Part shown: piece by piece, positions 3,726 to 62,574 of the stretch
Layout of the letters: the number at the start of each line of letters is the position of its first letter
Numbering within the stretch: the first letter of the stretch is position 1
Assembly: GCA_050084515.1 (NCBI GenBank)
Contig: CM114271.1
Location: 42,842,001-42,906,000 of the forward strand
Length of the DNA: 64,000 nt
Direction: 5' to 3'
Source of the DNA: Blasia pusilla
Taxonomy: Eukaryota
Position numbers and translations under genes: made by a program
The notes under the pieces: generated by a model
The model's database searches: none
The model's input: the letters and a program-made list of their open reading frames with translations, nothing else
What the model was told of the DNA's origin: nothing

Positions 3726-10672
<6,947 letters not shown>

Positions 10673-40348: not shown

Positions 40349-41510
40349 GTGAAATCACTTAAAGAGCATATGTTACCCCAAAGGAACATAGTGCCAAAAA
40401 TTCTCTATTTATCCAAAAAGCGAGTGGGGAAGTTGGGTTTAGATTACAACGTGATCCATATCCACATGGGTATATATTATTTCATGGAGATTTTAAGTAC
40501 TCGTGAGTTAGACACATGGAGGACTCAAAGGCATGGAAGCATGTGGAATACCTATATTCTTCCTTTAATAGAGAGAAGAGGGATTTTTGGTTTGGCTTAG
40601 ATGGCTTAAATCCTCGATGAAAAAACGACAAGTTCATGGTCGACTTGGCATGTATTGTTAGTGAATTACAACTTGCCCCCGTGGTTGCAAACCAAACTTT
40701 TTTTTTCCTCCAATTGAAACTAATCATCATGAGCAAAGAAAGTATCACTAGGAAGAACATCCACACATCCTTGGCTCCACTTATAGAGGAGTTTAAACAA
40801 TTGTGGAAGGACGTTTAATTTCACGACATGAGACAATTGAATGGTGAGTGGAAAATTACTTTTAGAGCCCTCATATATATTATGAACCATCAATAACTAC
40901 CCAAGTTATGGATTAATATTTGGACAAAGTTATGGTGGCAAGCTTGCTTGTACCTTATGTGGGAAAAATGTTGATTCCAACTTCTCCAAAGAGTGTGGAA
41001 CACCAATATATGGTGGTCATCGGCATCATTTCCAAAGGGATCCTAACTATAGGGGCATAAATTATGCTTCACTTTTTGAAAGAAAGAACTTGAACCACTT
41101 CTACATAGAATTGAGGTTGTAGAAATTCTAAAATGGGCGAAAGAGAAGTACATGTACGACAAGAGTGAGGGTCGAGAAGATGGTCCTCTAGACCCTTCTA
41201 AGAGAACATATGTGAAGCGAAAAGGAGTGTTGTTTGATCTACCTCATTGGGAAGTATCCTTCAAAAACAAGTTGAGAGAATCGTAAAGTAATTTTGAGGT
41301 TTTTTTTTGTAAATTAAATATTTCATATGGTCTATCCTTGATCGTGATGAGTCAATAACACTACTAATTTGATGTACTTTAGATATTATGCACGTGGACA
41401 AGAATATCGTAGAGAATGTAGTAAGAAAAATCTTTGGGGTTAAAGACATAGTGGAAGTGCGTCAAGAATTGGAGAAGAGGGGAATCCAACGCTGCATATG
41501 GACAAAGTTT
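40349..41510 (+). mobile_element. CACTA (En/Spm) Tnp2-type transposase fragments
   Basis: MLPQRNIVPK..YLSKKRVGKLGLDYNVIH; AWKHV; FGL.DGLNP; LVNYNLPPW; LAPLIEEFKQLW; LFDLPHWE; DIMHVDKNIVEN. These are the ordered Transposase_21-type motifs, frameshifted. Confidence 0.85.
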
Positions 41511-41639
41511 GTGTCTATAGACACGTCAATATCCGTGGACTTACGGCTGTCCTATAGAAATAATTTTCCATGTGGGCCCCATATCCCCACAAAAAAATGC
41601 ATTCATGCATATACCTCGAGACCACATAACAAAATCAAC

Positions 41640-42110
41640 GTAAAAATGGCTCACGCGGCCAAGTCCACTCTCAAATCTACATCAGTATATTGAGCCACAT
41701 CCACGCTATGGTATGAGGGAATTCGAATGCTACCATCTTAGTTCCCACACACACACAAGCAAGAGAGGTACTCTAAAGGCTCAACATGAGAAATATAGCT
41801 GGAGAAAGCCATCTCTTTCTCTCTTATATCCTTGGGAAGAGCCAAAAGGCTTCCCCCAAACATAGCTTCTACAACAATAACCTACGATCACGGGTTATCG
41901 GATGACTGTTGACTCGGTCAATGGATCACCAAGACAAAAATAGCAAAGAAGAGGATTTTTCATAAAAAATTATCCCAACGTAATGGATGTGTGATAACCT
42001 CATCCGACACCTCAAGAGAAAGTTACACCCAAATCACATGTTGACCATCTATCTTGTTGACGTGGTAGAACTCTCTACATGTCTACTTGCTAAGATGTGG
42101 CAAAGTAGAG
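41640..42110. repeat. Dispersed LTR-like repeat related to 11400-11940
   Basis: Shares sequence blocks with 11400-11940 and lies just after the point where the CACTA coding remnant breaks off. Confidence 0.5.
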
Positions 42111-43839
42111 TTTGTTGTTGTGATGACTCAAGATGTTGCGAGAGTGACTGAGCCATAGAGAGGTGAATTTGAGATAGACCATGGGAGGAGAATAATGGCC
42201 GCTAGTCCAGGATTCCCCAATCTTTCACATTATTGAAGGTACTACACACACTGTCAATGGTGCGTGGATGAACAACGATGCCCATAGGTGGCACATATAT
42301 ATTGACATCACAAGGAGTTGGAGAGGCAAGGTGATGCAACGATCACATTGGCAATATTCGCCGATAGTGTTAGCTAGCCATGAGAGTTTTTGAAAGGGAG
42401 CATCCATGCAAAGGACATCCCAATAGCAGATAATCCTACTGGGGGACATGCTATAATTGGTGTCTGGTCCCATGGTATTGGTGCTAAGATCTCTTCATCA
42501 TTGTGGGATATGAGCAGGGATGTGTAGATGAGTTCCGACAAGGTAATGAGTTAGGAGTGGATCCATACTTCTATTCTAGGATAGAAAAAAGCAGGTGGTG
42601 ACGAGAATTGGGGATGTCGTCCCTACCTGCGGCCACTGCATCATAGAGCAGACGTAGATCTTTCTTGGTTATGTCCTCAGGGTTGTTGAAGTCCAGCCAG
42701 ATCGGGCAATTCTCCACCTTCCAATCAGACATGCTTTGAGCCATCTCCATGTCGTACATGGAAAATGTCTCTCCATCAGGCAAAGAAGCCCACAATTTGC
42801 AGGCTGCCGGTATTTTTTGCCATATACCTGCATTCTTACAATGGACGAGGTACCTGAATACCATAAGTTGGGTAGCTCTTAGTTTAGATGCATCGGCCGT
42901 CTGTTCCTGAAGATCTCGCTTATTCTTTGCGAAACCCCTTTTCTTCGCCTCTATTTCTTCATCAAGGTTTGCCTGAGGGTGGATCCTATCCTTGAACATC
43001 GTCTTGAAACCTGGGTTTTTTATGGGCTTGTCCCGCATGTCATACAGCCAAAGTTCAAAATCTTCAACACTCTCTAGGTTTGCTTCCTGCGGAACTGGCT
43101 CTATTCTTTTCAGCTCCACTTGGAGACCCGCCAGCATGGACTTCCCGAGAAGCCACAACGCGTCCTAGAATGACCGATCACGGAGCCAGTGGGAGATCAC
43201 TGGATTAGAGACACCCGGAGGATGGTGTACCTGTTTGGGCCTCTATGCCCTCGAGAGTGATTTTCATCAGTCGGATTCTCCTAAATTCCGAAATTCCAGA
43301 CAAGGAAAATCGATGCACGCAATTGAGAGACACTTTCTCCCCAATCTGACCTTGCGGATCTTCATCCCTCTTCCGGTGGCGCTTGATTATCGCTTTCAGC
43401 TCCTTGTAGAAATCGGGGCCAAGTTTGGGGTTGAGAATGGCAATGTAGCGCTGCATCTTGCTTCCTGTGTACTTCGTAGCTGCAGATACTGCATCTTGGA
43501 TGAACTTAGCATGCTCATACACAGACATTTTCTCCCTCCGCTCCAGCTCCAATGCAGCGCTCTTCTTGGCGGCATGTATCTTCGACCAGCAAAGGATTGT
43601 CACTACTGCATCTTGGGAAATAAATGTATTTGCCCAAGTCTTTTTTTTTTATTTGAGCACCCTTTGCCAACATCTCATTTACAAGGGCGTCGCCCAAGAA
43701 CCCCTTGTACTCTACCGGGTGCGTCGTTAGCACTTTCTTCACCTGATCGTAATCTTGGATCTAGTGGTGGGTGACATTCCCCTCTGATACAATCCTGCAC
43801 ATCCAAACTCAATATAAGAAATTTTGCAAGCTACATGGG

Positions 43840-44490
43840 TTCTTGCAACCCGTCGAACTCCGACAGGTTGTCACAGCTCATGGTCGAAATGGTAGCTACG
43901 AGCTAAATTTTGCAACCCATCGGAGTCCGACGGATTGCATTCAGATTTGTGATTGTGTGGTTTCAAGCTGTCGGAATCTGACGGGTTGTCTGATAATTTG
44001 TATGTAGAGAGTGGTCTCCACGAGAAAAGTGAACATATCAACCCGTTGGAGTCCGACAGGTTGCGCAATTTCAATTAAAACTGCAATTTGACGCCAAAAA
44101 TCTAGCTCCCCTACTACAATCACCTTCCCGTGTCAGCGAATGCAACCTGTCGGACTCCGACAAGTTGGTTTTGGCCAAAAACATCCAAAAACAGCTGCCA
44201 GTCAAGCAACTTGTCGGACTCCGACGAGTTGCTTTCTTCCAAAAACATCCAAAAACAATGGTTAGTCGAGCAACTCGTCGGACTCCGACAAGTTGCTTTC
44301 GGCCAAAAATATCCTAAACCAATGGTCAATCGAACAACTCGTCGGACTCCGAAGAGTTGCTTTCCGCCAAAAACATCCTAAACCAGTGGTCAGTCGAACA
44401 ACTCGTCAGACTCTGACGAGTTGCTTTTGACCAAAAACATCCCAAAAATAGTGGCGTGTGAAACAACTCGTCGGAGTCCGACAATTTGCA
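43840..44490. repeat. Intronic array of the 25-bp palindrome CAAC(C/T)(C/T)GTCGGA-N-TCCGAC(G/A)(G/A)GTTG, including six units at 64-65 bp spacing
   Basis: Palindrome starts at 44143, 44207, 44271, 44335, 44399 and 44464, with further copies at about 43846, 43914, 43968 and 44039. Confidence 0.9.
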
Positions 44491-44601
44491 GCAAGAGGAA
44501 ACTTACGTGTTCATGGCATGCATGGCCATCTCCACCGTCGCCATGTGATGAGGGTATGGATGAAGCACGACCGCCTTCACGCAAAAATGCGCCTCCAATG
44601 A

Positions 44602-45083
44602 GTTTGGGCGCTCCTCTGCAAACTGGGTCCACGACATGAACCTTTGGTTTCCATCCTAGATGAAGAAATACAGGTTCGACATCCAGTTGAATTTCGTCCC
44701 CTCAATCACCCTTATGAATTCCTGATCTCTCATCCTCCAGAATGTGTCGAGCGCTTCTAAGTCCTCCTCCGTAACCAGCGCTTGGGTTCCATGTTCATCG
44801 TAAGGCTGAAAATAGAATGGAGGGAAGCTGTCGACGTAGGATGTTTGGGCGCTCCTCTGCAAACTGGGTCCACGACATGAACCTTTGGTTTCCATCCTAG
44901 ATGAAGAAATACAGGTTCCACATCCAGCTGAATTCCGTCCCCTCAATCACCCTTATGAATTCTTGATCTCTCATCCTCCAGAATGTGTCGAGCGCTTCTA
45001 AGTCCTCCTCCGTAACCAGCGCTTGGGTTCCATGTTCATCGTAAGGCTGAAAATAGAATGGAGGGAAGCTGTCGACGTAGGAT
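44602..45083. repeat. 241-bp direct tandem duplication inside the ParB-like exon of copy A
   Basis: GTTTGGGCGCTCCTCTGCAAACTGGG... begins at 44602 and again at 44843. The segment is single-copy in copy B (about 53981-54221). Confidence 0.95.
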
Positions 45084-46194
45084 GTTGTCGCTGCCGATTG
45101 TTTCAGCTTCACAATATCCTCGTTAGACTGAATTTGGCGGACGTACTCCATTGTTCACAATCGGCAAAGTGGAATTCTCGGGGCGTTCTGGCCCTCCATC
45201 ACTGCCATCTGCTTTACCACCTCTCACAACGAGGACAAGGTCAATAAGCTACACTGAATTGCCAATGAATTGCAACATGGGTCTTCACATAACTCAAAGA
45301 ACAAAGATCGTATCTTACCCGCTCTAAGACTGGGTCGGTGTCTTGGCTAGCCAACTGCTCTGGGACAGCAGCTGGCAAGTCCACTGGAAACTTGTCGATC
45401 CGATAGAGGTCAATTTCTTCCGCCGGGCTTAGAGACAAGGAGGATCGCTCTCATGCTTCTTCAGCGATGTCCACCATCTCCACGCTGGCGGTCCTCATGA
45501 CCTCATCGTCCGTCACTTGAACTTCGGCTGTTTCCGCTATATTGATTGTGTCCCCGGACTTCATCGGGGACATTTCCTGCATCTCAACATTTCGGTTGGA
45601 CGGCCGGGCTTTCTTCAATGGAAATCACTTTTTCCCTCCGAGCTTTTGCCAATTCTGCTCTTCTCACCGACGCGTCCAGACGCTTATTTTCACGCTTTTT
45701 GTCGACGATCCTTTTCTTCAAGGCCTCTGACGCCTCAGCCTCTGCATCCTACTTTTCGAGTGCCTCCTTTACACGTTTTGCAAGAAGCTCTTGCTTGTGC
45801 ATCTCTGCTTCCCTTTCCCGCTCCTTGATTTCTTGCTGCCTTATCTCATTTGGCCAAACGAGGCCCTGGAGATGGTGACGTAAGAGTCCTCATGGAATTG
45901 GGAGTGAAGCTCCCAGCCTTGTTTCCTTGAGATTTTTTCCTTGTCATTGTTCCCAAAAATGCCTCCTATGGACAAGGAAATTGCTCTCTGTGCACGAGGA
46001 GTCGCCTTGCTAATGTCGTGATGAGTTGCCTTGATGAGTAGCTTGAATCGTCTCGCAATCGTCTCGCGATCGTTTGCTCGAATCGTCTCGCGATGAGTCA
46101 CGGTGTAAAGCGCCCCTTGGTATCTAGTCAGCTGTTGCGCGGAAGAGCAATTGAGATCGCGAAACAAAAAACCGGAAATGAGCGAACCCTCGCC

Positions 46195-47317
46195 TATTTA
46201 TACTTTTCAAGCCGTTGGGCTGAGTGTTGGGTCGCATTGTCGTTCCAACGGCGACGTGTCGGTCGTTATGGAAGTCTGGACGTGAAAAACACCAACCCGA
46301 CGGCTTCGACGGGTTGCACGCTTCCCGCGGATTTGAGGCATCCATCCTCCTGGCAACCCGTCGGAGACCGACAGGATGCGCGCCTTCGCCGTCTTCCGAC
46401 AAGAACGCGAGGTACCCGCGCAACCCGTCGGAGACCGGTGGGTTGCATGCTTCCCTCGTCTTGGGATAACAAGGCGGGCTACCCGCGCAACTCATCGCGG
46501 GCCGACAGGTTGCACGCTTCCTTCATGTAAGCGTTACAAGGCAAGGCACTTGCGCAACCCATCTGAGGTCGACGGGTTGCGCGCCTCCGCTGTCTTCGGG
46601 CAAGAAGGCGCGGCACGCGCGCAACTCGTCGGAGACCGACGGGTTGCACGCTTCCTTCATGTAAGTGTTACAAGGTGAGGCACTTGCGCAACCCATTTAA
46701 GGCCGACGGGTTTCGTGCCTCCGCCGTCTTCGGGCAAGAAGGCGCGGCACCCGCGCAACTCGTCAGAGACCGACGCGTTGCACGCTTCCTTCATGTTAGC
46801 GTTACGAGGTGAGGCAATTGCGCAACCCGTCCAAAGCCGACAGGTTGTACGCTTTGCTTATCTTGGGGTTATAGGTGAGGTACCAGGGCAACCCGTCGGT
46901 TAGCGACAGGTTGCACGCTTTTCTATCCCTTGCGACAACGCATAGTTCCGAGGCAACCCATTGCAATCCGACGGGTCACAAGATCTACCTTGAGTTGGAA
47001 AATCCCGCAAAAGTCCCCAAAAATTGGTTGCCTTAGCATATGCAAGCGATATCTCATGTTTGATGCTAGCAAAATCGACTCAAAAGACCATTGGTCAGCA
47101 AGAAGGGGGTACCAACCCAACGGACTCCGACGGGTTCCAACAAATAGAGGTGGGTGCTTCGCAACCAACGTCTCTGATTCCCAAATTTTGCAACCCACCT
47201 GACTCCGACAGGTTGCAAAAAAATTGAATCCATTGTGTCAGACATTCTCACCTACCAAACTTCATCTTGTCAGTCAAATTCTGTCAGGAGAATGTGAGTC
47301 CCTATTCACTATAAATT
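46195..47317. promoter_or_regulatory. Divergent promoter region between the two element genes, filled with palindrome repeats
   Basis: TATAAATA on the minus strand at 46195-46202 (TATAAACA at 55269-55276 in copy B) and TATAAAT on the plus strand at 47310-47316, upstream of ATG 47404. More than ten CAACCCGTCGGAG.CCGAC(G/A)GGTTGC-type repeats lie between them. Confidence 0.55.
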
Positions 47318-47403
47318 AAACATTCTCATTCTCATTCTCATACCCATTCCCATTTTTATCATCATTCTTATTCTCAATCTCCTCCCGGTGGAATCTTCTG
47401 GGA

Positions 47404-50283
47404 ATGGATAATTATGTGAAGCTCACTTGTGGCAGTCATCTAGCGGCCCTTCCTCAATCAGAAATCGTTCAACCGCAAGCTCGTGAGTCTTTCATAGCAG
47501 TGGATGAAATTTTTCTCTCTGTTCGATTTCTTCTCCAAATTGGAACCATCTTTGTATCCAAGGATGTTAGGGTGGACGGTACGGAAGACATAATAGTGCT
47601 TCAATTCCAGTGAAGACTAGTGCTTCAATTCCAGATGGTCCTTGAATTTTCTCCCGCCGCCAATGCGTTGGAACCCTCGAGTGTAGAAGTCCAGCATGCC
47701 CAGATCTAGAGCGCAACGGGCGGGTCAATACGTTGCAATTCCCCCCAAGAATGCAGAAACTCCATATGAGGTCGGTGCCACCACACCGCCGGGAGGCCAT
47801 CGATGTCCTCATTGTCAGGCATCCCCTTTCTGCATTGGAGCGTGTCCTGCATACATATTTTTCATTGTCCACGACTTGGGATCCACGTCACACTACACAA
47901 GGTTGGCAGTTCATGTTGGCTCCCACGCTCATCTTGTGACTGATGCAATTCAGAGACACATCAAGGAGGATGTGGCGAAGAAAGTGATCAAGCTCACAAC
48001 ACCATCACAAATTTGTGAACAATTGCTTGGAATCCCTAGACAGGGCGAGATCACGGCTGCAGAGGAGAAACAACTCCGGGAAAATCTCGCATTTCTCGCT
48101 AATCCTTAATACTTCCAGAATTTTTGCTACGTCAAATACTAGTACTGGATGGAAAGACGGCCAAAATGGATGCCATTGTCAGAATCAAGGCCAACTCTAG
48201 ATTTCCATTCATTCATAGATGGCAGTTCATGGGCCAGGGAGTCGAAGGATCCAGGGCCTATGTCTTCAAAATATCAACGACAGGTCCGTCAAGTGGCCTC
48301 GATCTTATAGATTGAATGAGGGAAGGGGAAGATCTTTACGGCAGCTGGGTAAGCTTTGATATTTGCTATAGAGTGCTGAACGGATAGTTGACAATGGGTG
48401 CTCACGCTTATGACCATGTGGAGAAGGGACTCAAAACTATATATTTATTTGAAGTAAAAGCAGAAGACGTTGGCAGTTTGAAGATGTGCTCGTTACTCTT
48501 ATTGGAGGTGGTGAAGGAAAAGAAAAGGCCACCTCCGGAAATTGATGGGTTCATGGCGGACAATGCACAACGTGGGTGGATTGCTATCAGGGAAGTATTC
48601 TAGGGTGGAGAGGTTCAACCGGAGAGGGAAAGGTCGGATGCTTTCCATTGGCAATAGTGTGTGACCCGGTACACCAAATCTTGCATCAAGGAGAATGAGA
48701 GGACAAAGCATGTCACTGTACTCCAACGCTGCAAGGATAGCAAAACCTTGAAATAGGCCAAGGAATGCCAAGAAGAACTTGATGGGTGGTGGAGGAAGCA
48801 TGCGATTGAGGGGAAGTACAAAGAGTTATGCTCTTGGCTGAGTTGGTGGACTATACGTATGAGACAATGGGGAAACTTCATACGGCAGGTGAGTTCACTA
48901 TTTTGTCTTGTCAAGCTCACGTTGAGAATTGCTTGAAAAGTTGCAGCTCAAGTTCAGAAGTGTGGGCACTATAGGGATTTCAAACCAAAGAAACCAAGCA
49001 ACTTGACGGATGCGACAGGTTGCCCGAGTGTGCAACCTATCAGAAACAGACAGGTTGGCCGAGTGTGCAACCAGTCGAAAACCGACAGGTTGCATCAATA
49101 ATTTTGGTGCAACCCGCATACAAGTATGCAAGTTGCATGTATACAAGGCCTGAAAATAGTTCGACCCGGATGGGTTTCGGATGACTTGCACTTGGATCTT
49201 CCAGCCCGGAGTGGCCAAAGGTTCTTGCAACCTGTCGGAATCAAACGGGTTGCAGTAGGTGCTTCCTGGGTGTTGCAACAGATTGGGACCCGATGGGTCG
49301 CAGAGTCGTTCATGGGATGCCTCGGCCTTGCAGCCCGTTTGGTTCCGACAGGTAGCTGATTTCTTTGACTTTTGAGTTATTTTCATTCCCTTCTCACACT
49401 GCCGTCGTTGCAGGGATGGAACATTTATGAAAATGCCCTCTGCCCCAACACAAGTGGAGCAAAAAGTGTTCATTCCTCCTGGAGGTCGTCACAACCATGC
49501 CAAAGAATTTCACTTGTGGAGGCATGCCGACAAGACCAGGCAAGAGCAATGCTACAGTCTGCAGCATCCCATATCTTCCTCACAAAAGGCATAACAAAAG
49601 GAAGGGGGCCTTCGATCTACGAGCTCTATGTCAGGGCGGCTATGAGATCGAGTGATGAAAAACTCTATGTGGAAGCCTTCAACCAGTGCATAGCAAGAAC
49701 TCCCCTCGAGCAAGACGTACACATTGGTGGGGATATTCGTGGGCGCGTTTCAAGACGTCCCATACAGATGGTGGTAGAGCAGTCCGAGCGAGACTCGTGG
49801 AGACCAGATAAGTATCTTGACTTCAGGAAAGTGAAGAGGCATCATCGAGGAACGAATCCGGTGATTGATTTGGATGAGGAAATCACGCTGCCCAAGTATT
49901 CGGGGACCCCGGACTGCTCCCAAATCCATGATGGAGTAACTTCTCCAAAATCAGTGAATGTTTTATTTCAAAAGCCAAAAATGGAGATCATCGCCACCAA
50001 AGATGTACACAGTGGCAATGGAATAGGAAGGATGTATTTGGTGAGGAACAACACTATAAATTCAAGTATCATAGGGATGTATGTGGTGCACATCTGTTGC
50101 TTTCCCACATGTTCATGTGATGACTTTGTCCAAAGAGAGACAAGTGGCAAAAGGTATTTCCCTTGTAAGGCCATGTACTATGTGTTGCTTGTAGTTTTAA
50201 GAGAGTCGGAAGTAGGAGTAGGAATCCACCAACCAATTCTGTCCCTCAAAGAAGTGCGAAGTACTTTAAACAAACCACTTTGA
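47404..50283 (+). pseudogene. Mutator-like (MULE) transposase with N-terminal GCM/WRKY-type zinc finger and C-terminal SWIM, copy A
   Basis: RRQCVGTLECRSPAC...HRCPHCQASPFCIGAC...RLAVHVGSHAH (GCM-like); VSFDICYRV, EVKAED, FMADNAQRGWIAIREVF, SDAFHW (MULE core); intron 48889-49413; PNTSGAKSVH; SWIM YVVHICCFPTCSCDDF...PCKAM. Has stops and a 633-bp in-frame deletion relative to copy B. Confidence 0.85.
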
Positions 50284-51012
50284 GGATGCAAAATAAAGTT
50301 TTAGATTGTACTTTCATTTGTCCAGAACCTTCACTTTGAGCTTGAACTCCATTCAACCCAGGGCAAATGATAGATTTTTTCCAGACCTTGGATGGAAAAA
50401 GTGATTGGTTCCACACTTATGATTCCACTGATTTTTCAGTTTTTTAAATTTGGTGCAATTTGCAACTCGTCGAACTCGGATGGGTTGCCAAAATATGGAA
50501 TAGGAAAAAAAAAACTGTGGGAGTGCTTAAGAACTGAGCAAAAAAGTGCAAAAAAAATCACACAAAAAGTTTCCTCTCTTCAAATCACATGAAACTCTCT
50601 TCAAAAAAAAGTATCTCTTTGGGTTGAAGGTAGTTTCCTCTCTCCTCTCTCCTTTCTTCCTCTCTTCCTCTCCTCTTACCGCACCTCACGTGTCGAAATC
50701 CGACAGGTTGCTTGGAAGTGGTTAAGAAGAGGCAGTGGTCAAAAAGTGAAAAGTTGCAACCCGTGAGAATCCGATGGGTTGCAAAATAAACTCTTGGAGT
50801 ACATAGATGATCACAATCGACAAGACCAAAAAAGATATTCAGCAAACTTTTACAAACACCATAATCGTTCAAAAAAATCTTGTGCTTTATAACATCCGAA
50901 GGAAGCTCGGAACTGTACATTTGATCTATTCTATGAATTCTTGTGCCTCATCATCAAATAAATCCCTACTCCAAAACGTTGTAGTCAAGTTGGGTCCTTG
51001 AGTTCTTTAAAT

Positions 51013-51402
51013 TCACTTGTCATCGTCCGAGAGCTTTTCCATAATTACTCTCGTTCTTGCCCTCCCGATTTTCGGAATCATGGGAAGTGACAATGGTATC
51101 ACTACCAATGGTGGGTATGGAACCAGAGCTCTTGGCTTTGGAGGAGAGTTGAACGCCCCAACTAGCCTGTCATAATCTGCCTTTGCCTCTTTGAAAAGGT
51201 CAAACAGGTCCTGCCTTCCCTCAAGGCAGAGAATGTTCCTGCCACTTTGCCAAACGCCTCTAATACTCGCCCCTGAAAGGCCCACTAAGTCGAACACTAA
51301 GTCACCCGGCCTTGAGCAGAGCTCGATGAGCGTTTGCATCAAGGCTGGCGACTTTTCCCTTCCTCCAAGTAAGGGGGTACCGTCTTGAATGTAAATTCCC
51401 AA
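51013..51402 (-). other. DNA amino-methyltransferase (N6_N4_Mtase-like) SAM-binding segment
   Basis: EKSPALMQTLIELCSRPGDLVFDLVGLSGASIRGVWQSGRNILCLE aligns by eye to the beta-class consensus QKPxxLxxxLIxxxSxPGDxVLDPFxGSGTTxxAAxxxGRxxIGxE (motifs X, I and II). Confidence 0.7.
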
Positions 51403-53399
51403 GGGGGGGGATTTTATAAACTATCTAAGTTGTACCCATCGGAGCATGGATCCACTAGATCCAGGATCTTAAACACTTGGAAGTTGTGCTCAGGCCGAAC
51501 AAAGCACTAAACATAGGAGTGGTCTATCTGTAAAGAAGTAGGTTGGAAGCAATGTCAGCAACAAGAAAGAGCTACTTCACCGCTGGTCTACTCTCAGTAT
51601 GGTGACACAATCTGCAACACGTCCCCAAAGAACTTCGCTTAACCCTATAGAACTTTATTATAGTCCTAACATTAGAGAAACCTGTCAGAGTCCGACGGGT
51701 TGTTTTATAAGTGTTAGTGATTTTTTTTGCCATGAGCAACCCGTCGCAAGCCGACAATTTGCTGGCTTAGAGCAACCCATTGTTGGCTAAGAGCAACCCA
51801 TCGCTTTCAGACGGGTTGCATCATTCCAGAAACACAAGGAAAAGCATAAGCATTTGCACCCGTCTGATTCCGACGAGTTGCAAGTGCTTACGCTTTTCCC
51901 GAGTCTGAGGTCGGCTTGTTGGGGTCTCTATTACCTCGGACTCTGTTGGAGTTTTCTTGGCGGAGGACCTGATCCGGCCCTCTCTCCCCGCTCGCCCGGA
52001 CAATTCCGCCTCTCGCCTTGAATTCTCAACCTCTTTTTTGGAAGACTCCGCCTCGAAATTCTTCGATCCCCTCGCCTTTTCTTTCGGACCCGCTGTAGAT
52101 TTGTCCTTGGCGATGACGACCTTGGACACCAACTCCCTTGTCTCGAGGGCTTGCTCCTCCGCATCTCCTTCGAAAAAGTCTTCAGGCTGCACAAAATTTG
52201 GGATGTCGTCCCTACCTGCGGCCACTGCATCATACACTCGTCAAAAATTATTGTCGGTGATGTCCTCGAGGTCGTTGAACTCCAGCCAGATCGGGAAATT
52301 CTCCACCTCCTAGTCAGACATGCTTTGAGCCATCTCCATCAGGCGGAGAAGCCCACAATTTGCAGGCTGCCGGTATTTTTTGTCAGATACCTGCATTCTT
52401 ACAATGGATGAGGTACCTAAACACCATCCATTGGGGAGCTCTTTGTCGAGATGCATCGGCCGCTTGCTCCTAAAGATGTTGCTTCTTCTTTGCAAAATCC
52501 CTTTTTTTCGCCTCTATTTCTTCATCTTGGTCTGCCCGAGGGAGGATGTGATCCTTGAACATCGTCTTGAAGCCTGGGTTTTTCATGGGCTTGCCTCGAA
52601 TGTCATCAAGCCAAAGTTCAAAATCTTCAGCACTCTCCAAGTTTGCTTCCACCGGAACAAGCTTTATTTTTTTCAGCTTCGCTTGGAGACCCACGAGCAT
52701 GGACTTCCCGAGAAGCCACAACGCGTCCCAGAATGACCATTCACGGAGCCAATGGGAGATCACTGGATCAGAGGATGTTGTGCCACCCTCTTTTGGGCCT
52801 CTATGCCCTCGAGACTGATTTTCATCAGACGAATTCTCCTAAATTCTGAAATTCCAGACAAGGCAAATCTATGGACGTGGTCGAGAGACACTTTCTCCCC
52901 AATCCAACCCTACGGACCTTCATCCCTCTTCCGCTGGCGCTTGATTATCGCCTTCAGATCCTTGTAGAAATCGGCGCCAAGTTCAGGATTGAGAATGGCA
53001 ATGTAGCGCTGCATCTTGCTTGCAGTGTATTTCATAGCTGCAGATACTGCAGCTTGGATGAACTTAGCACGCTCAGACGCAGACACGTTCTCCCTCCGCT
53101 CCAGCTCCAATGAAGCGCTCTTCTTGGTGGCCTGTATCTTTGACCAGCAAAGGATTATCACGGTTGCATCTTGGGAAATAAATGTATTTTCCCAAGTCTT
53201 TTTTTTTATTTGAGCCCCCTTCACCAGCATCTCATTTACAAGAGCGTCGCCCAAGAACCCCTTGCACTTTGCCTGGTGCGTGGTCAGCACATTCTTCATC
53301 CGGTCGCAATCTTGGATCCAGTGGTGGGTGACGTTTCCCTCGGATACAATCCTGCACATCCAAACACACTATAAGAAATTTTTGCAAGCTACAGGGGTT

Positions 53400-53850
53400 C
53401 CTGCAACCCATTGGACTTCGACAGGGCGCTACACCTCATGGTCAAAATGGTAGCTAAGAGCTAAATATTGCAACCCATTGGAGTCCGACGGATTGCATTC
53501 AGATTTGTGATTGCCTTGTTACAACCCGTCGGACTCCGACGGGTTGTCAGATGATTTGTATTGTGAGAGTGGTTTCGGCGGAAAAAGTGAACATATCAAC
53601 CCGTCGGAGTCCGACAGGTTGTGCAATTTCAAGTAAAGCTGCAATTTGATGCCAAAAATCAAGCTCCCCTACTCCGATCACCTACCCGTGACGGCGAATG
53701 CAACCCGCCGGAGTCCCACGAGTTGCTTTCGGCCAAAAACATCCTAAAAACAGCGGCTAGTCAAGCAAGTCGTCGGACTCCGACGAGTTGCTTTAAGGCA
53801 TACGATGTTTTGTTACCACTAGTTAAACAACTCGTCGGAGTCCGATGGTT
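53400..53850. repeat. Intronic palindrome array, copy B
   Basis: Perfect copy CAACCCGTCGGACTCCGACGGGTTG at 53522-53546; others at about 53404, 53471, 53597, 53701, 53764 and 53828. Confidence 0.9.
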
Positions 53851-55669
53851 TGCAGAAATTAAAATAAAGGAAGAGGAAACTTACGTGTTCATGGCATGCA
53901 TGGCCATTTCCACCGTCGCCATGTGATGAGGGTATGGATTTAGCACGACTTCCTTCACGCAAAAATGCGCCTCCAATGAATTTGGGCGCTCCCCTACAAA
54001 CTGGGTCCACGCCATGAACTTGTGGTTTCCATCCCACATGAAGAAATAGAGGTTACGCATCTTGCTGAATTTTGTCCCCTCAATCACTCTTCTGAATTCT
54101 TGATCTCTCATCCTCCAGAATGTGTCGAGCGCTTCCAAGTCCTCCTCTGTCACGAGCGCTTGGGTTCTATCTTGATTGTAAGGCTGAACATAGAACGGAG
54201 GGAAGCTGTCGACGTAGGATGGTGTCGCTGCCAACTGTTTCAGCTTCGCAATATCCTTGTCAGACTAAATTTCACAGATGTACTCCATTGTCCGTAATCG
54301 GAAAAGTGGAATTCTCCGGGCATTCTGGCCCTCCATCAATGCCATCTGCTTTACAATCTGTCATAAAAGGGACAAAGTCAATAAACTACACTGAATTGCC
54401 AATGAATTGCAACATGGGCCTTCACATAACTCAAAGATCAAAGATTGTTTCTTACCCACTCAAAGATTGGGTTGGTGTCTTAGCCCACCAATTTCTCTAG
54501 GACAACAGTTGGCAAGTCCACTGGAAACTCGTCGATCCGATATTGGTCGATTTCTTCTGCCGGGCTCAGAGACGAGAAAGACTGCTCTCCTCCTTCTTCA
54601 GAGATGTCCACCATCTCCACGCTGGCGGTCCTCATGACCTCATCGTCCGTCAGTTGAACTTTGGCCGTTTCCTCAGTCGATTTTATACTGATTGTGTCCC
54701 CGAACTTCATCGGGGAAATTTTGTGCATCTCCACACTTTCGGTTGGACGGGCCGTGCTTTCTTCTATGGCAATCTCTTTTTCCCTTCGAGCTTTTTCCAA
54801 TTCTGCTCTCCTCACCGACACGTCCATACGCTTCTTTTCACGCTTTTCCTTGGCAATCCTTTTCTTCAAGGCCTACGACGCCTCAGCCTCTACGTTCTAT
54901 TTTTCGAGCGCCTCCAAAACACGTTTTGCAAGAAGCTCCCGCTCCTCGATCTCTTGCAGCCTTATCTCATTGGTCGAACGAGGCCCTGGAGATGGTGACG
55001 CAGGAGGCCTCATGGACTTGGGAGTGAAGCTCCCAACCTTGCTTGCTTGAAATTTTTTTCCTCATCATTGTTCCCGAAAATGCCTCCTCCTCGACAACGA
55101 AGTTACTTTCTGTGCACGATGAGTCGCCTTGCTGATGTCACGATCAGTCGCTCGAATCGTCTTGCGATGAGTCACCGTGTAAAGCGCCCCTTGGTATCTG
55201 GTCAGCTGAAGCGCGGAAGATCAATCAAGATCGCGAAACGAAAAACCGGAAATGAGCAAACCCTCGCATGTTTATACTTTTTGAGCCGTTGGGTTGACTG
55301 TTGGGTCGCACCTTTATTCCGACGGCGACGTGTTGACCGTTATGGAAGTTTGGATGTGAAAACCACCAACCCGACGGCTCCGATGGGTTGCACGCTTCCC
55401 ACGGGTTGCAGGCGTCCGTCCTCCTTGGGTTAAAAAGCTGAGCTATCCTGGCAACCCGTCAGAGACCGACAGGTTGGGCGCCTCCTCCGTCTTCGGGCAA
55501 GAACGCGAGGTACCCGCGCAACTTGTTGGAGGCCGACGGGTTGCACGCTTCCCTCATCTTGGGGTAATAGGCGAGGTACCTGGGCAACCCGTCGGTTATC
55601 GACATGTTGCACGCTTTTCTATCCCTTGGGTAACAATGCGATAACGCATAGTTCCGAGGCAATCCCTTG

Positions 55670-58600
55670 CAATCTGGATGTCGTCAACCTCAGTGGATTT
55701 GGCCGACACCAACCTAGACCTCTGTCCGCCTACTCGTTCCTCTTGCGAGTATCAGGCAATATTTTGCTATCGTCTCTGGCCTTGAAAATGTTCAAGCACA
55801 TTCTTCTCGACGAGCTGGCGCCCACGTACGATGGTAATTGCATTTTTGAGTTGCCTCTACTTGCTGCTCCTACTCAAAAGAAAGATGGAGGACGCTTGAA
55901 GGGTATGGACAGAAAGTCTGATTTGTCATCGATGGTGTAGGCTTCAACAAACTAGTGCTTCAATTCCAGATGGTCCTTGGATTATCTCCCATCGCCAATG
56001 CGTTGGAGCCCTAGAGTGTAGAAGTCCAGCATGCCCGTATCTAGAGCACAACGAGCGGGTCAATACATCGCAATTTCCCCCCCAAGAATGTAGAAACTCC
56101 ATATGAGGTCGGTGCCACCATACCGCCGGGAGGCCATCGATGTCCTCATTTTCAGGCATCCCCTTTCTACGTTGGAGCGTGTCCTGCATACATATTTTTC
56201 ATTGTCCACGACTTGGGTTCCACGTCAGAGTACACAAGGTTGGCAGTTCATGTTGGCTCCCACACTCATCCTGTGACCGATGCAATTCAAAGACACATCA
56301 AGGAGGATGTGGCAAAGAAAATGGACGAGGTCTTTAGAAACTCTCCAGGTTCAAAGCCCGGAATGATCAAGTTAACAACAACATCACAAATTTGTGAACA
56401 ACTACTTGGAATCACGGCTGCTGAGGAGAAACAACTCTGGGAAAATCTCGCATTTCTCGCTAATCTTGAATGCTTTCGGAATTTGTTGCGTCAAATACGG
56501 GTATTGGAAGGAAAGGCGACTGAAATGGATGGCATTGCCAGAATCAAGGCCAACTCCATATTTCCATTCATTCAGAGATGGCAGTTCATGGGCTAGGGAG
56601 GCGAAGGATCCAGGGCCTATGTCTTCAAAATATCAACGACATGTCCGTCGAGTGGCCTCGATCTTATAGATCGAATGAGGGAAGGGGAAGATCTTTACGA
56701 CAACTGGGTAAGCTTTGATATTTGCTACAGAGTGCTGAATGGATAGTTGACAATGGGTGCTCACGTTTATGACCATGTGGAGAAGGGACTCAAAACTATA
56801 TTTTTTTGTGAAGTAAAATTAGAAGACGTTGGCAGTTTGAAGATGTGTTGTTACTCTTATTGGAGGTGGTGAAGGAAAAAAAAAGGCCACCTCCGAAAAT
56901 TTATGGGTTCATGGCGGACAATGCACAACCTGGGTGGATTGCTATCAGGGAAGTGTTATGGGGTAGAGAGGTTCAAAGGGAGAGGGAAAGGTCGGATGCT
57001 CTCCATTGGCAACAGTGTGTGACCCGGTACACTAAATCTTGCATCAAGGAGAATAAGAGGATAGAGCATGTCACTCTACTCCAACGCTCCAAGGACAGCA
57101 AAACCTTGAAATAGGCCATGGAATGCCAAGAAGAACCTCATGGGTAGTGGAGGAAACATGCGATTGAGGGGAAGTACAAAGAGTTATGCTCTTGGCTGAG
57201 TTGGTGGATTGTACGAATGAGACAATGGGGAAACTTCATGCCGCAGGTGAGTTCACTAATTTGTCTCATCGAGCTCACGCTGAAATTTTTTTGAAAAGTT
57301 GCACTTAAAGTTGAGAATCGTGGGCACTATAGGGATTTCAAACGGAAAAAACCAACCAACTTGTCGGATGCGACAGGTTGCCTGAGTGTTCAACCCGTCG
57401 CTAACCGACCAGTTGCCTAAGTGTACAACTAGTCGGAAACCACGGGTTGCAAGTCGCATGGCCAAATTTACTTGCAACCCGTCTGAATCCGACGGGTTGA
57501 CGGGTTTCCTGAATGTGCAACCGGTCGGAAAAGGACGGGTTGCAAGTCGCATGGCCAAATTTATTTGCAACCCGTCAAAATCAGACGGGTTGCACTAGGT
57601 GGTTCCTAGGTGTTGCAACACCTCAGGAACCGACAGGTCGCAGAGTCGTTCATGGGATGCCTTGGCCTTGCAACCCGTCTGGTTCCGACAGGTAGCTTAT
57701 TTCTTTGACTTCTGAGCTATTTTTGTTCCCTTCTCAGATAAGGGTCGTTGCAGGGATTGAACATTCATGAAAATGCCCTCTGCCCCAACACAAGTGGAGC
57801 AGAAATTGTTCATTTCTCCTAGAGGTGGTCACAAGCATGCCAAAGAATTTCACTTGTGGAGGCATGCCAACAAGACCAGGCAAGAGCAATGCTACAGTCT
57901 GCAGCATCCCATATCTTTCTCACAAAAGGCATAACAAAAGGAAGGAGGCATTCAATCTACGAGCTCTATGTCAGGGCGGATGTGAGATCTGGTGATGAAA
58001 AACTCTATGTGGAAGCCTTCAACCAGTGCATAGCAAGAACTCCCCTCGAGCAAGACGTACATATTGGTGGGGATATTCGTGGGCGCGTTTCAAGACGTCC
58101 CATACAGATGGTGGTAGAGCAGTCCGAGCGAGACTCGTGGAGACCAGATAAGTATCTTGACTTCAGGAAAATGAAGAGGCAGCATCGAGGAACGAACATG
58201 GTGATTGATTTGGATGAGGAAATCACGCCGCCCAAGTATTCGGGGACCCCGGATTGCTCCCAAATCCGTGATGGAGTAACTTCTCCAAAATTTATGAATG
58301 TTTTATTTCAAAATCCCTCAGTTGCTGGAAGTTCGCAACATCCAGTCGCTGGGATGGTTCAACAATATGGGATTCCGGTCATGGAGGTGGATTGCAACCT
58401 GAAACGGTGGCATATATCTCGTAGCAACCCTGGACGTGGACCCACTTGCAGGGCAGGATCTGATGGCATTAGGAGAGCATGCGGCACTTTCCTAAATAAG
58501 AACTGTACAAGGACTGGACGACCACTGCTTGGGTTTTGGGGACTCAAAACCTTTGATTGTTTCACGAGGACCGGAGATCAATTGAAGTACTTCTTCTGCC

Positions 58601-59256
58601 CAAATGAATCTTTCGCTTTACGGAAGTCTTATTCGGTTGCCATTGGAGCTCCGGGGAATACCCCCGTGATTTTGCCCATCGCCGTAGGTACGAATTGCAC
58701 TCAAGATGAAGTGGACAATCTTACAAGTGTCGGTTTTAGACTCATAGAGAGAGGAAGTTTAGAGCATATTTGCATTACAGAGACCTTCGCATTTTGTATT
58801 CAACCCAAGATTGATGTCAACATGTACCTGGAGAAGATGGATGATCTCAATCCACTATTTCTGTTTGAGTCTAGAAATGGGGTGAAGAGAAAAAGAATGT
58901 GTAGGCCAACGGTGGAGAGAGCAAAGCGAATTGCATCAGCTCTAGAGGAAAAAATGGAGATCATTGCCATCAAAGATGTCCACAATGGCAATGGAATAGG
59001 AAGGATGTATTTGGTCAAGAACAACACTGTAAATTCAAGTGTCATAGGGGTGTATGTGGTGCACATCTGTTGCTTTCCCACATCTTCATGTGATGGCTTT
59101 GTCCAAAGAGAGACAAGTGGCAAAAGGTATTTCCCTTGTAAGCACATATACTATGGGTTGCTTGTAGTTTTAAGAGAGTCGGAGGTAGGAGTAGGAATCC
59201 ACCAACCAATTTTGTCCCTCAAAGAAGTGCGAAGCATTCTAAACAAACCACGTTGA
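55670..59256 (+). pseudogene. Mutator-like (MULE) transposase with GCM-type zinc finger and SWIM, copy B (5' end deleted)
   Basis: PTYDGNCIFELP...GMDRK; HRQCVGALECRSPAC...RLAVHVGSHTHP; VSFDICYRV; FMADNAQPGWIAIREVLW...SDALHWQQC; intron 57247-57753 (GTGAGT...TTGCAG) full of palindromes; PNTSGAEIVH (candidate catalytic E); 466-aa ORF 57856-59256 ending in SWIM (PTSSCDGF...PCKHIYY). Confidence 0.85.
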
Positions 59257-59671
59257 GGATGCAAAATGAGGTACTAGATTGTACTTTTATTTTCCAAAAC
59301 CTTCACTTTGAGCTTGAACTCTATTCAGCCCAATGCAAATGATAGATTTTTTCCAGACCTTGGATGGAAAAAGTGATTGGTTCCACACTTATGATTCCAC
59401 TGATTTTTCAGTTTTTAAAATTTTGTGCAAATTGCAACTCGTCGGACTCACATGGGTTGCTAAAATGTGGAAGAGAAAAAAATTATGTGGGAGTGCTTAA
59501 GAACTGAGAAGAAAAATGCAAAAAAAATCACACAAAAAGTTTCCTCTCTTCAACCCAACAGAAACTCTCTTCAAATCATAGGAAACTCTCTTAAAAAAAA
59601 AGGTATCTCTTTGGGTTGAAGGTAGTTTCCTCTCTCCTCTCTCCTCTCTTCCTCTCCTCTTACCGCACCTC

Positions 59672-62420
59672 CCTTTCCTTCCTCGCTTGGGAGTGCGGTG
59701 GCGTGTACGTCTCTTCCATTTGGATTTTGGGTCCTCTCCGGAGTCTGTGGACCTCGTCGTGCCATCCGTGGAGGCTTCGGTGTCTATAGGGGACGCTTTG
59801 TCTTGTGAGGAAGAGCTTGTGTGCGAAGAGCCTTGCCGTTGATGACGCCATCTTCACATTTTTTGGGACTTCTTGGAGGCTTCGTACGCCTGTGCTGATG
59901 CGATGACTGCTTCTAGAGAGTCTCGTTGGCCCCGACACCGATACTTATCCATCTCCTTGGAGAGTTCCGACACAAAGTAGACTACCAATTGTGAGGTGGT
60001 TGTGTGGTCGAGTTTGTTAACAAGACTTCGGAACCTTTGGGTGTATTCCCTCAGGGTTTCCTTCTTTTTCCGTTTCAAATCCCGGAGCTTCGTCAGAAGC
60101 GTGTCCTCGAACTTCAAGTCGTAAAATTCATGAAGAAAGGCCTCAAGTACCCTCTTCCAGGTTTCAATGACCTCCGCTCCTAGACCCTCGTACCACTGAC
60201 TTGCCCGCTACTTTAGGAGGTCCGAGAATACCTGTAACAAATCCTCCTCCGAGCCTTCCCCATTAGCCTTAGCTACATGGGTAAACTCAAGCACAAAGTT
60301 ATCGACGTCATCTCTTTGTCCTACCGTGAACGTAGGATATCTTAGCAGCGTCTTTCTAGTGTTACCCATTGGAAAATTTCAGAGGCTAGGTCTCGGACTT
60401 GATGTTCGGGAAGGAGGAGGTAGAGGTTCCCATCTGATCGATCTGGCCAGCCCCTCGTCTCCTTCGTACCCAAAGGGATTCTAGGTTGACTCTTCGTCCG
60501 ACTGCAAAGTGGCAGGAGACGTGCTGGGGATAGCACTCATGTCCCTCTTCTTGATCTTCGGCTTTGTTCAAGGACAAAGTCTGGGAGATACACCCGTCGG
60601 TCTCCAAGACGAATGATCTTTGTGTTGCTTATTGCGTCGGTCAGCTTGCTGATCCCAAGCGGATGGCTGGGAGACTTCCATGAGTCCCTCTTGGGATTCG
60701 GGAGCTTGCTTCCGCATCCACGATTGCAACAAGGTATGGGTCCATGGGGAGAAATTGGATCTTCCTAATTCCTACGGGAGTGTGAAGGTGCTCTCAATCT
60801 ACCTGCCAGGTTTTCCGCCCATAAATAGAAGTATCGGGTCATCACCAAGTACAATTGACGTTCATGGGCAAAGCATCGTTCGGCGACGGGTTCTTTGACA
60901 ATACTAATTAGTTGTTCTATCTTCTCTAGCACTAATGCAGCAAAAAGATTGCTATCTTCTTCTATCCATTGTCTCAGGGGGATAGCTAGAGATAGGAGAT
61001 GATCTTCTGTGAGAACTAGAGGGTTGGATCTCCTAGGCGACGAGGCTTCTTCCCCCGGCCGGGGGTTACCTATCAGTCTCTCTCTTTCCAACAAATCTTA
61101 TGATCCCCGGCAGTGGCGCCAAAAGTTTGTTGCTATATGTAATATACAGGAGGTATAAGAATTGATCTTTTACATTAATTTAATGAGTTCGATCCCCAAG
61201 AGGATCATGATTATGTGGAAAGAGAGGTCAAGATGTCGTTTATCTTGTAATAGTTGTTATTAAGTGTATATAATTCAGATTCAATGACTTATCAATGTGT
61301 TCAGATCTCTCTTAGTACCAAGATTTCTTTCCTTGATTCTCTGTAGTGGAATTGAAATCACGCTCAAGTATATCTTCACTCAACATCAAAGAACGTCATA
61401 GAGACCTCAACAAGAAGATGGCTTCTCCGACTTTCGGAACTCAATCCGTCTAGGCACGCTACTCTCTGTCGAACAAAATTCTTACAACTCCGTATTGATT
61501 ATTCTAATGATGAAAGTGTTCTCTTGATTGACTCTTCACTCTGCAGACCCAATGAGAATACTCAGGCATATGCATCGCACATCAGAATGAAGAAATGAGT
61601 ACTTTACTACTCCATCAAGAATGACAAAGCTTCAAAAAAGTGTACAAAAACGAGAGGGTACTACTCTCTTGCTCGGACCATTCCTATAGCATAAGGACTT
61701 CGTAAAAGAATGATGGGGATAGCTACTTTCATGCCTCTTAAATATTCTCCAAAGTATGAGTGGTTCTAAGGATTCGAAACGTTCTTGAGGAATATGGTGT
61801 CTCTTCAAAATTTGTAACTACCTAGATCTATGGTGCTCTTTTCTTTTCCTATGATCCCTGTGAATCCGCTGAGCGTAACTATACTAACTTCCTATTTGAT
61901 AAAAAATTCGTGCCTCTTCCTACTCTAATTGTTCTAAGAGTGTGCCGCTTGAAATCACTTCGAGTCTTAGCTTCGCTTTGCTGCGAAGTCTGGACCTCTT
62001 GTGCTTCACTTGAAGACGAAGCTCTTTCTCCTAATCTGAAGACGAAGCGCTCCATTCTTCGCTCTTATTCCAGGGGCTTCGTTCTTCGTGCTTCGATAAA
62101 GAGCAAAGTACTTCTTCCTCTTCTTCTTCATCATGTTTCGTTCAAGAGTGAAGCACTTCATAAACAGGTTCTTAATAAGGCTTTGTTGTCTTTTCCAAGC
62201 TTCGCTCTTAGTCTTTAGACTTCATTATTGCATTTCTATCTCCTCTAAGGCAAATCCTTGATTTTTCATCTCTCTGCCTTTTCTTAGGAGCTTCATGATT
62301 TCTTTCAATATTAGTCATTCTTCTACTACACAAACATAATATCCAAAATCATTATGTATACACAAGTTTTCTTCGAATAAAAAGCTCTAAATCTTCAAAA
62401 GTACAAAATTGCGGGCATCA
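59672..62420 (-). mobile_element. Athila-like Ty3/gypsy 5' part: LTR (61128-62420), PBS and truncated gag
   Basis: The minus-strand LTR runs TGATGCCCGC...AGCAACA. The PBS TGGCGCCACTGCCGGGGAT (61103-61121) is of the Athila type. Retrotransposon gag KFEDTLLTKLRDLKRKKKETLREYTQRFRSLV (59854-60117). Truncated at 59672. Confidence 0.8.
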
Positions 62421-62574
62421 CAATAGGGTTAGGGTTGCTTGCACATACCCTATACAATTGAGAAGAGGACCAGCCTCCACTCATTCTCTCATTGCAAATT
62501 TCGTTCTCCATGGTGGTGTGTGCGTGTGTGAGAGCCGTTTTCTACCAATTATGTTTGTTTAGCAATTTTCCACA
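62421..62574 (+). repeat. LTR fragment (same family as 3369-3517) between the Athila-like LTR and a gypsy RT
   Basis: Sequence similarity to 3369-3517. It ends CCACA at the point where the gypsy RT frame is cut. Confidence 0.6.

Follow-up and report, generated by a model that had tools for sequence, protein, structure and literature searches.

A methyltransferase-like fragment in the genome of Blasia pusilla, probably left from the 3′ end of a repeat-borne gene

Is a short open reading frame (ORF) in plant nuclear DNA that reads like part of a bacterial DNA methyltransferase the trace of a working enzyme, of a binding module or of nothing but chance? The frame in question lies on the minus strand at positions 51013–51420 of a 64,000-nucleotide stretch of Blasia pusilla DNA (contig CM114271.1 of assembly GCA_050084515.1, positions 42,842,001–42,906,000 of the forward strand); this whole stretch is called the window here and all coordinates below count from its first letter. 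Bacterial-type methyltransferases of the Pfam family PF01555 (N6_N4_Mtase) are rare in eukaryotic nuclei, and the cited portions of the literature describe very few cases, namely N4CMT of rotifers (PMC8885841) and DN4MT1 of Marchantia (bioRxiv 10.1101/2021.02.12.428880). We consider it probable that the flagged stretch is what remains, in decayed form, of the 3′ end of a gene on a repeated, transposon-like element and that intact relatives of this gene end in a PF01555-family domain. What appears to be new is a multi-copy, repeat-borne moss family in which a PF01555-type domain ends a large protein; a literature search combining PF01555 or N6_N4_Mtase with mosses or plant transposons (supplementary files lay outside its scope) found no description of such a family.

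The stop-to-stop ORF 51013–51420 (135 residues) encodes a 49-residue peptide, GGREKSPALMQTLIELCSRPGDLVFDLVGLSGASIRGVWQSGRNILCLE, and holds methyltransferase-like motifs X, I (DLVGLSGAS) and II/III, as seen in matches to Pfam, to the sequences of solved structures in the PDB and to an independent family hidden Markov model (HMM). PF01555 is the sole Pfam family matched by the ORF (E = 9.5e-4, 19.6 bits; gathering score 26.7 bits), with ORF residues 22–77 aligned to positions 165–220 of the 221 in the profile, and the top solved chain for the ORF alone is M.RsrI (E = 0.0065). The independent HMM was built from eight sequences, the window's own being left out, over residues 885–1130 of the moss protein P0012 (described below). 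Searched against 3861 six-frame pieces of the window, it matched the flagged ORF only (E = 4.6e-18, 63.4 bits), ORF residues 11–74 aligning with HMM positions 170–233, and the runner-up piece reached E = 3.4. Likewise, tblastn with each of seven family proteins (7/7) found its sole match in the window at the flagged place (E = 1e-11 to 2e-14). Because an HMM that had never seen the window sequence picks out this one ORF, the homology to methyltransferases is real; at the level of sequence, the ORF is homologous to the C-terminal part (motif X, motif I and motifs II/III) of β-class N6/N4 amino-methyltransferases.

A HMMER search with the ORF over 1.84 billion representative proteins returned eight proteins at E ≤ 1e-3, of which five (P0003, P0004, P0005, P0007 and P0008) align in a single stretch to ORF residues 8–76, and PF01555 is the top Pfam family in four of these five, P0004 scoring 26.5 bits (cut-off 26.7). 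The other three (P0001, P0002 and P0006) are internally repetitive, were matched in 7–21 stretches and were discarded as repeat-protein artefacts. P0009 and P0010 are close paralogues of P0005, and all three are annotated as ‘hypothetical proteins’ of the moss Ceratodon purpureus, encoded on three chromosome-scale contigs. The ORF alone, used as a query for longer homologous proteins, found no match; P0012, also from C. purpureus, came to light when longer proteins were searched with a profile, so that four paralogues of this species are spread over the three contigs. Metagenome scans with P0007 and with the family alignment A3 found no relative. P0012 is 1147 residues long and P0005, P0009 and P0010 have 758–803 residues; in the intact relatives a ‘WDGNH(R/K)’ domain at the N terminus is followed by a helical middle and a charged linker, and a PF01555-family domain closes the protein at its C terminus. 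Residues 903–1119 of P0012 cover positions 2–217 of the 221 in the PF01555 profile with 30.4 bits (E = 4.9e-7), above the cut-off. With this above-threshold match along the entire profile, both the fold class and the β-class motif order are supported at the level of the family.

An earlier note, written from the letters of the sequence, had already read this peptide as a β-class methyltransferase-like domain in plant transposon DNA. The peptide is where it was claimed to be, on the minus strand within ORF 51013–51420, with a homology far beyond chance, and its β-class identity is borne out by the family HMM and by the whole-profile match of P0012. The note had also held the circularly permuted order of motifs to be visible in the window. 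That order is found in P0012, in which a single collinear profile match (positions 2–217) places the catalytic motif IV (DTPF, residue 908) before the cofactor motif I (DLSASTGAS, residue 1089), while the window itself retains motifs X, I and II/III only. The comparison with PF01555 that the note had proposed as a check gave a divided result, the window ORF falling under the cut-off and P0012 lying above it over the whole profile; the possibility it had allowed for, that no significant HMM match would turn up, has not come about, given the match of the window-free family HMM.

Canonical enzymes of this class carry a catalytic motif IV with the consensus (D/N/S)PP(Y/F/W) and a motif I glycine loop with the consensus DPFxGSG(T/S), and a DPFxGSG-type loop is visible in the alignments with DpnA and RsrI. 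The canonical (D/N/S)PP(Y/F) form of motif IV is found neither in the window nor in the four full-length Ceratodon relatives, and the canonical DPFxGSG(T/S) or FxGxG loop of motif I is found in none of the family sequences nor in the window. The BLASTP alignment of P0012 with P0005 starts in the middle part and takes in the entire domain (E = 3e-29); it sets DLIIIDTPFDS of P0012 opposite DMIFADAPEGL of P0005. Thus, where the earlier note had looked to intact homologues for an upstream DPPY or SPPY, the upstream motif found reads DTPF in P0012 and DAPE (DAPEG) in P0005, P0009 and P0010; the DAPE proteins, three of the four full-length ones, have no aromatic residue in motif IV. Motif I, rightly described in that note as divergent in the window (DLVGLSGAS), reads DLSASTGAS in all four close relatives of alignment A3 and DWSA(N/S)TGAS in the P0005 group, and DLSDGCGAS also occurs in the family; what remains of the canonical loop is the Asp and the final Gly position.

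Seven columns are invariant in 9/9 sequences, the window included (P0012 numbering): G1064, Q1074, G1084, D1089, A1096, S1097 and E1112. The last of these, the Glu after the strand that follows motif I, lines up with the GIE of DpnA, and the acidic residue at this place (‘GiE’) binds the ribose of S-adenosylmethionine (SAM). Since all nine sequences share the motif I Asp and the Glu that comes after it, the cofactor pocket of the intact family is probably kept. The catalytic activity of the intact relatives appears doubtful, because their motif I reads DLSASTGAS and their motif IV DTPF or DAPE.

Among known enzymes, the family most resembles the bacterial and phage β-class N6-adenine methyltransferases, such as the DpnA-type M1.HpyAVI (PDB codes 5hek and 5hfj), CcrM (6pbd), M.RsrI (1eg2) and PRK11524. 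The profile of alignment A2, which like A1 carries the window ORF as one of its rows, found the DpnA-type chain 5hek at E = 5.8e-6, and five of the seven solved chains listed were β-class methyltransferases; with the A1 profile the DpnA-type match stood at E = 1.5e-5 and eight of 11 chains were of this class. RsrI, CcrM and the TTHA0409-type 2zie follow the DpnA-type chain in the ranking. The order of motifs is that of the bacterial enzymes, motif IV to motif VIII and then X, I and II/III (as in P0012), and the family pattern xEKS..l.q.lI...s.pGDiv.D......AS...a..sgR.f.g.E aligns with the bacterial HPTQKS..L...iI.....p.DiVlDpF.GSGTT..Ac....R.fiGiE. The differences are equally plain: DLSASTGAS in the family and DLVGLSGAS in the window instead of DPFxGSGTT, DTPF or DAPE instead of (D/N/S)PP(Y/F), and a domain that forms the tail of a eukaryotic, multi-copy protein of 750–1150 residues, with low identity to the bacterial sequences. 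With whole P0012 as query, phmmer found weak matches among PDB sequences (DpnA, E = 0.053) together with unrelated incidental ones, and tblastn of P0012 against phage records gave two weak methyltransferase matches only (30–34% identity), none over the N-terminal part.

The rotifer and Marchantia enzymes (N4CMT, PDB codes 8s9m and 8s9n; MpDN4MT1a/b) share with the family a bacterial-type PF01555 domain in a eukaryotic nuclear genome. However, these are single or tandem host genes with demonstrated activity, whereas the family described here is multi-copy and repeat-borne and has degenerate motifs. Rotifer N4CMT scores far more weakly against the family profile (E = 0.54–0.58) than do the DpnA-type adenine enzymes (E = 1.5e-5), and the NCBIfam matches of P0012 are adenine-specific models, including PRK11524. 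As judged from these profile comparisons, the nearest solved or curated relatives are adenine methyltransferases and not writers of N4-methylcytosine (4mC), so the framing of the domain as a 4mC writer in the earlier note does not fit its best relatives (5hek, CcrM, RsrI and PRK11524). Specificity for N6-methyladenine (6mA) and for 4mC arose repeatedly within the PF01555 domain, according to the part of the rotifer study cited, which also describes an added eukaryotic domain in N4CMT (PMC8885841).

In the window, only the last third of the domain survives (motifs X, I and II/III). Homology detectable by tblastn runs from about 51462 down to 51133–51199 and passes through an in-frame stop at 51421–51423, which stands where the relatives read LRYLTLTN; the upstream continuation in the same frame, ‘GSSGSMLRWVQLR*’ (51421–51462, minus strand), is drawn from the tblastn alignments with P0003, P0004 and P0012. 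Beyond it, the expected site of motifs IV–VIII (51463–51690, minus strand) has stops in all three frames, and against the family HMM its pieces give scores of −2 to −3 bits. Twelve residues in the third frame, TPMFSALFGLST (51520–51485), look like the motif VIII strand and can be set against TYMFSALLLLKT of P0012; the match is collinear and weak (−2.9 bits, not significant). Collinearity with P0012 would place the missing half at 51691–51880, and there four half-sites of a palindrome (CAACCCGTCGGA type; described below) occupy the expected place of the N-terminal half of the domain. No piece in any frame of the 64-kb window matches HMM positions 1–169, the N-terminal two-thirds with motifs IV–VIII (best E = 3.4).

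The caution of the earlier note that no catalytic motif could be placed in the window is thus upheld, the N-terminal half being absent in six frames. Its two positive suggestions for the missing part fare worse. ‘IDHSYV*CFVRP’, taken for a motif VIII strand in the same exon, lies in another frame, contains a stop and is separated from the ORF by stops between the frames (piece 51506–51417, −2.5 bits), and ‘IVSPY’, the weak catalytic candidate, lies in a piece (51638–51597) that scores −3.0 bits against the family HMM and ranks 1576 of 2372.

The 3′ fragment appears to belong to a longer broken gene. On the minus strand at 53842–54360 lies an N-terminal domain, ‘FFMWDGNHKFMAW’, with two in-frame stops, which matches P0012 residues 225–400 (E = 1.3e-17 and 3e-20); FFMWDGNHKFMAW stands opposite FYVWDGNHRLVAW of P0012, in its WDGNH(K/R) domain. 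A middle region, ‘...MQRYIAILNPELGADFYKDL’ (52955–53107, minus strand), has its counterparts in ‘LAIANPANGKNF’ of P0012 (residues 468–517, E = 0.057) and ‘VAVANPALGVPF’ of P0005 (residues 1–61, E = 0.041), both matches being weak and collinear. Next comes a charged, low-complexity linker ORF of 139 residues (51821–52240, minus strand), which lines up weakly with the linkers of P0012 and P0005, at levels that are not significant alone (E = 2.9–23) and which crosses the repeat boundary at 52195 (see below). Finally, P0012 residues 1041–1118 match 51444–51202 (E = 1.4e-12); this match shares its strand with the N-terminal one, and the two follow each other as they do in P0012. Because these same-strand matches are collinear with P0012, we take them for one broken P0012-like gene running from about 54360 to 51013, with the flagged stretch as its 3′ end. 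Given the in-frame stop, the missing half with catalytic motif IV and the stops in the N-terminal domain, the window copy makes no working protein; it is a dead pseudogene remnant and has no function.

This gene lies in DNA that is repeated and transposon-like, as the earlier note had supposed. Self-comparison of the window shows a repeat of 8–9 kb: 42606–50688 (copy 1) aligns with 52195–59672 at 77–93% identity in aligned blocks. Copy 1 has its left end cut inside the gene and both copies end in ‘...CTTACCGCACCTC’; copy 2 would extend over 50689–59672, the part from 52195 being aligned to copy 1. We infer that 50689–52194 is the remainder of copy 2 and holds the 3′ end of the gene, because the minus-strand ORF crosses 52195, the parts are collinear with P0012 and copy 1 is cut at the equivalent point. 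Copy 1 has a second broken N-terminal domain with in-frame stops (44509–45223, minus strand; P0012, E = 3.8e-12 and 1.8e-10), inside which lies a 244-bp tandem duplication (44602–44845 and 44843–45086, 98% identical). At the right ends of both copies (50630–50688 and 59620–59672) a CT-rich tract, TCTCTCCTCTCTCC..., precedes CTTACCGCACCTC, and the right end of copy 1 adjoins a palindrome that has no left half.

The palindrome of the repeat is 25 bp long, CAACCCGTCGGA-N-TCCGACGGGTTG, and its half-site has 87 matches where 2.5 are expected (at most two mismatches). A motif scan places its arrays at 43846–44475, 46293–47215, 49011–49355, 50463–50781, 51691–51880, 53404–53852, 55367–55596 and 57357–57695, in and between the genes of the repeat and often with a spacing of ∼64–67 bp. 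In translation the palindromes give the recurring strings ‘NPSDSDGL / QPVGLRRV’ in many ORFs.

A search of the N-terminal domain against Pfam, NCBIfam and PDB sequences found no match. Its WDGNH(R/K) motif presumably recalls the ‘DGQHR’ of ParB/Srx-type domains, a likeness that is our own and that no search supports. In a language-model feature atlas, residues 200–720 of P0012 (window 54360–52955, minus strand) lie beside clusters of the fungal family DUF3723 with a score of 0.96, this lead comprising 191 of 256 features and 13 of 30 hits; by HMMER, PF12520 (DUF3723) matches neither whole P0012 (E ≤ 1) nor residues 200–720 (E ≤ 10). DUF3723 is a conserved accessory gene of the Starship giant transposons of fungi and has no established function, as far as the cited part of the source goes (bioRxiv 10.1101/2021.12.13.472469). 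On that basis the N-terminal part would be like the DUF3723 proteins of Starships in being an accessory protein of a mobile element, a likeness in feature space only that HMMER does not match, and a cross-kingdom link between accessory proteins of mobile elements (P0012 residues 200–720 and DUF3723) is possible. Unlike P0012, DUF3723 has no methyltransferase domain reported in the same part of that source.

How might the intact protein work? A WDGNH(R/K) domain, a helical middle and a charged linker would be joined to a circularly permuted β-class amino-methyltransferase-like domain, and in the intact members this last domain would most likely be a module that binds SAM and DNA with weak catalysis or none, part of an accessory protein of the transposon and possibly acting on the palindrome arrays of the element itself. 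As far as sequence can tell, a binding module has about an even chance of being the right description, an active adenine or cytosine amino-methyltransferase distinctly less and something else again less. The binding module is favoured over an enzyme because the catalytic loop is non-canonical and one subgroup has lost its aromatic residue. Of the two inferences offered by the earlier note, a dead SAM/DNA-binding module is the better fit for the intact relatives, since their motif IV reads DTPF in one and DAPE in three, with the proviso that the window copy is itself a remnant; a transposon serving as reservoir or vehicle of such enzymes does not suit the window copy, because this is a pseudogene fragment. 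A partial parallel is found in the polyproteins of DIRS1 retrotransposons. In the cited part of their study (PMC4738411), Iyer, Zhang and Aravind (2016) describe there a methyltransferase-like domain with substitutions in catalytic and substrate-binding positions, which they regard as probably inactive and perhaps serving as a binding module. By that description both are amino-methyltransferase-type domains with catalytic substitutions inside a mobile-element protein; the DIRS1 domain, however, is of another clade (PCIF1-derived and not permuted PF01555) and sits in a retrotransposon polyprotein rather than in an accessory gene of a DNA repeat.

Several points weigh against this picture of a decayed gene end from a family of degenerate modules. 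On its own the window ORF stays under the PF01555 cut-off (19.6 against 26.7 bits), and the AlphaFold2 models of P0005 (alignment A1) and P0012 (alignment A5) have a mean predicted local distance difference test (pLDDT) score of 35.8 and 40.6, respectively, values so low that they left no fold comparison. The 3′ fragment is tied to the upstream exons solely by collinearity with P0012, and 50689–52194 has no second copy in the window, its membership of copy 2 being inferred. For the element, terminal inverted repeats, target duplications and a Pfam transposase were all sought and not found. Moreover, the state of motif IV comes from one species (four proteins, two states). DTPF still has the Asp, an aromatic residue and one of the two Pro, which means that members of the P0012 type could be active, and the strict conservation of DLSASTGAS suggests, as far as an alignment can, a working rather than a dead loop.

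The last two points lead to the chief rival, that the intact members are active 6mA or 4mC DNA amino-methyltransferases which mark the transposon's own DNA, for example at the palindrome arrays, and that the window copy is a dead relic of one of them. P0012 does cover the whole PF01555 profile above the cut-off, nine of nine sequences have the motif I Asp and the Glu after it, and DLSASTGAS is identical in four of four, as if the cofactor loop were under selection; in eukaryotes, other bacterial-type members of this Pfam family do work as enzymes, as the cited parts of the N4CMT and DN4MT1 reports (PMC8885841; bioRxiv 10.1101/2021.02.12.428880) indicate. Nevertheless, no sequence shows a canonical FxGxG loop or a canonical (D/N/S)PP(Y/F), DAPE lacks the aromatic residue in three of the four full-length proteins and the catalytic half is wholly missing from the window copy, so that on present sequences we regard an active enzyme as unlikely, though to be taken seriously. 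A more elaborate version, in which mobile elements of mosses would carry an accessory protein in which a DNA-binding part of Starship-DUF3723-like or ParB-like type is fused to a working bacterial-type amino-methyltransferase that writes 6mA or 4mC on the 25-bp palindrome arrays of the element itself, strikes us as quite improbable.

That the fragment instead comes from a non-mobile gene of the host, or from some older, different element, and simply lies between two transposon copies without belonging to the gene of the repeat, would account for 50689–52194 being single-copy in the window, for copy 1 ending at 50688, exactly at the start of that stretch, and for the Ceratodon relatives being annotated as ordinary hypothetical genes. 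We think this improbable, somewhat less so than the elaborate version just described: the minus-strand ORF crosses 52195 in copy 2 and copy 1 is cut at that very point, the N-terminal domain, middle, linker and methyltransferase tail all lie inside 3.4 kb of a single strand, arranged as in P0012, and the palindrome motif of the repeat occurs in the stretch too. That the likeness to methyltransferases arose in junk DNA by chance or through composition is hardly credible. The single-sequence scores that might suggest it are indeed marginal (Pfam E = 9.5e-4 and below the cut-off; PDB E = 0.0065) and three of the eight search matches were repeat proteins aligned in 7–21 stretches, but five independent relatives share the same block of 60–70 residues, four of them independently with PF01555 on top, and the idea is refuted by the full-profile, above-cut-off match of P0012 together with the window-free HMM, for which the ORF was the sole match among 3861 pieces.

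Were any member of the family active, plants would have in it a mobile source of 6mA or 4mC; land plants show few N6A-methyltransferases, according to the part of the survey cited (PMC4738411). Were all members inactive, this would be another mobile element that retains a methyltransferase shell as a binding module. A working writer on the element's palindromes, if true, would represent a transposon-borne epigenetic writer in land plants, kin to the accessory genes of fungal giant transposons.

The repeat holds further genes on the plus strand. A divergently oriented second ORF of 477 residues (57823–59256) has a shorter version in copy 1 (49369–50283), and copy 1 lacks ∼640 bp found in copy 2 between 58313 and 58950. 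Its product ends in a SWIM-like CxC...CxH motif (CSCD.F...PCKH), and the feature atlas points weakly to SWIM clusters (0.85). An upstream ORF (56045–56596 in copy 2, 47687–48109 in copy 1) resembles a C/H zinc finger (GGHRCPHF...VHVGSHTHP). The plus-strand ORFs of the repeat gave no Pfam match and no Pfam transposase domain, and a search for terminal inverted repeats (at least 80 bp between the repeat ends) and target duplications found none. A Mutator-like element (MULE) was considered and set aside as unsupported, with no inverted repeat of at least 80 bp and no Pfam match, the CxC...CxH motif and the SWIM lead (0.85) being all that spoke for it.

The surroundings of the repeat contain other mobile DNA. 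Just left of the point at which copy 1 is truncated, a plus-strand ORF (41373–41693) contains ‘LDIMHVDKNIVEN’, which we take to recall motifs of CACTA/TNP2-type transposases; this ORF has no Pfam match at E ≤ 10. Directly to the right of copy 2 lies a long terminal repeat (LTR) retrotransposon on the minus strand (59854–60207, 62559–62984 and 63224–63619), the gag ORF of which matches PF03732 (E = 4.4e-12); further ORFs of this flank resemble a reverse transcriptase and a protease/zinc knuckle, and one of them, when checked, had no Pfam match. Two related minus-strand ORFs at 4454–5554 and 9442–10380 resemble a non-LTR reverse transcriptase by reading and have the string ‘KQGCPLSPTLFGLYIDELE...LLLYADD’ in common. 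Finally, and in keeping with nuclear DNA of a plant or alga, an uninterrupted plus-strand ORF of 617 residues (14379–16232), with SRP54_N, SRP54 GTPase and SRP_SPB domains behind a long N-terminal extension, looks like an intronless gene for a chloroplast-type SRP54.

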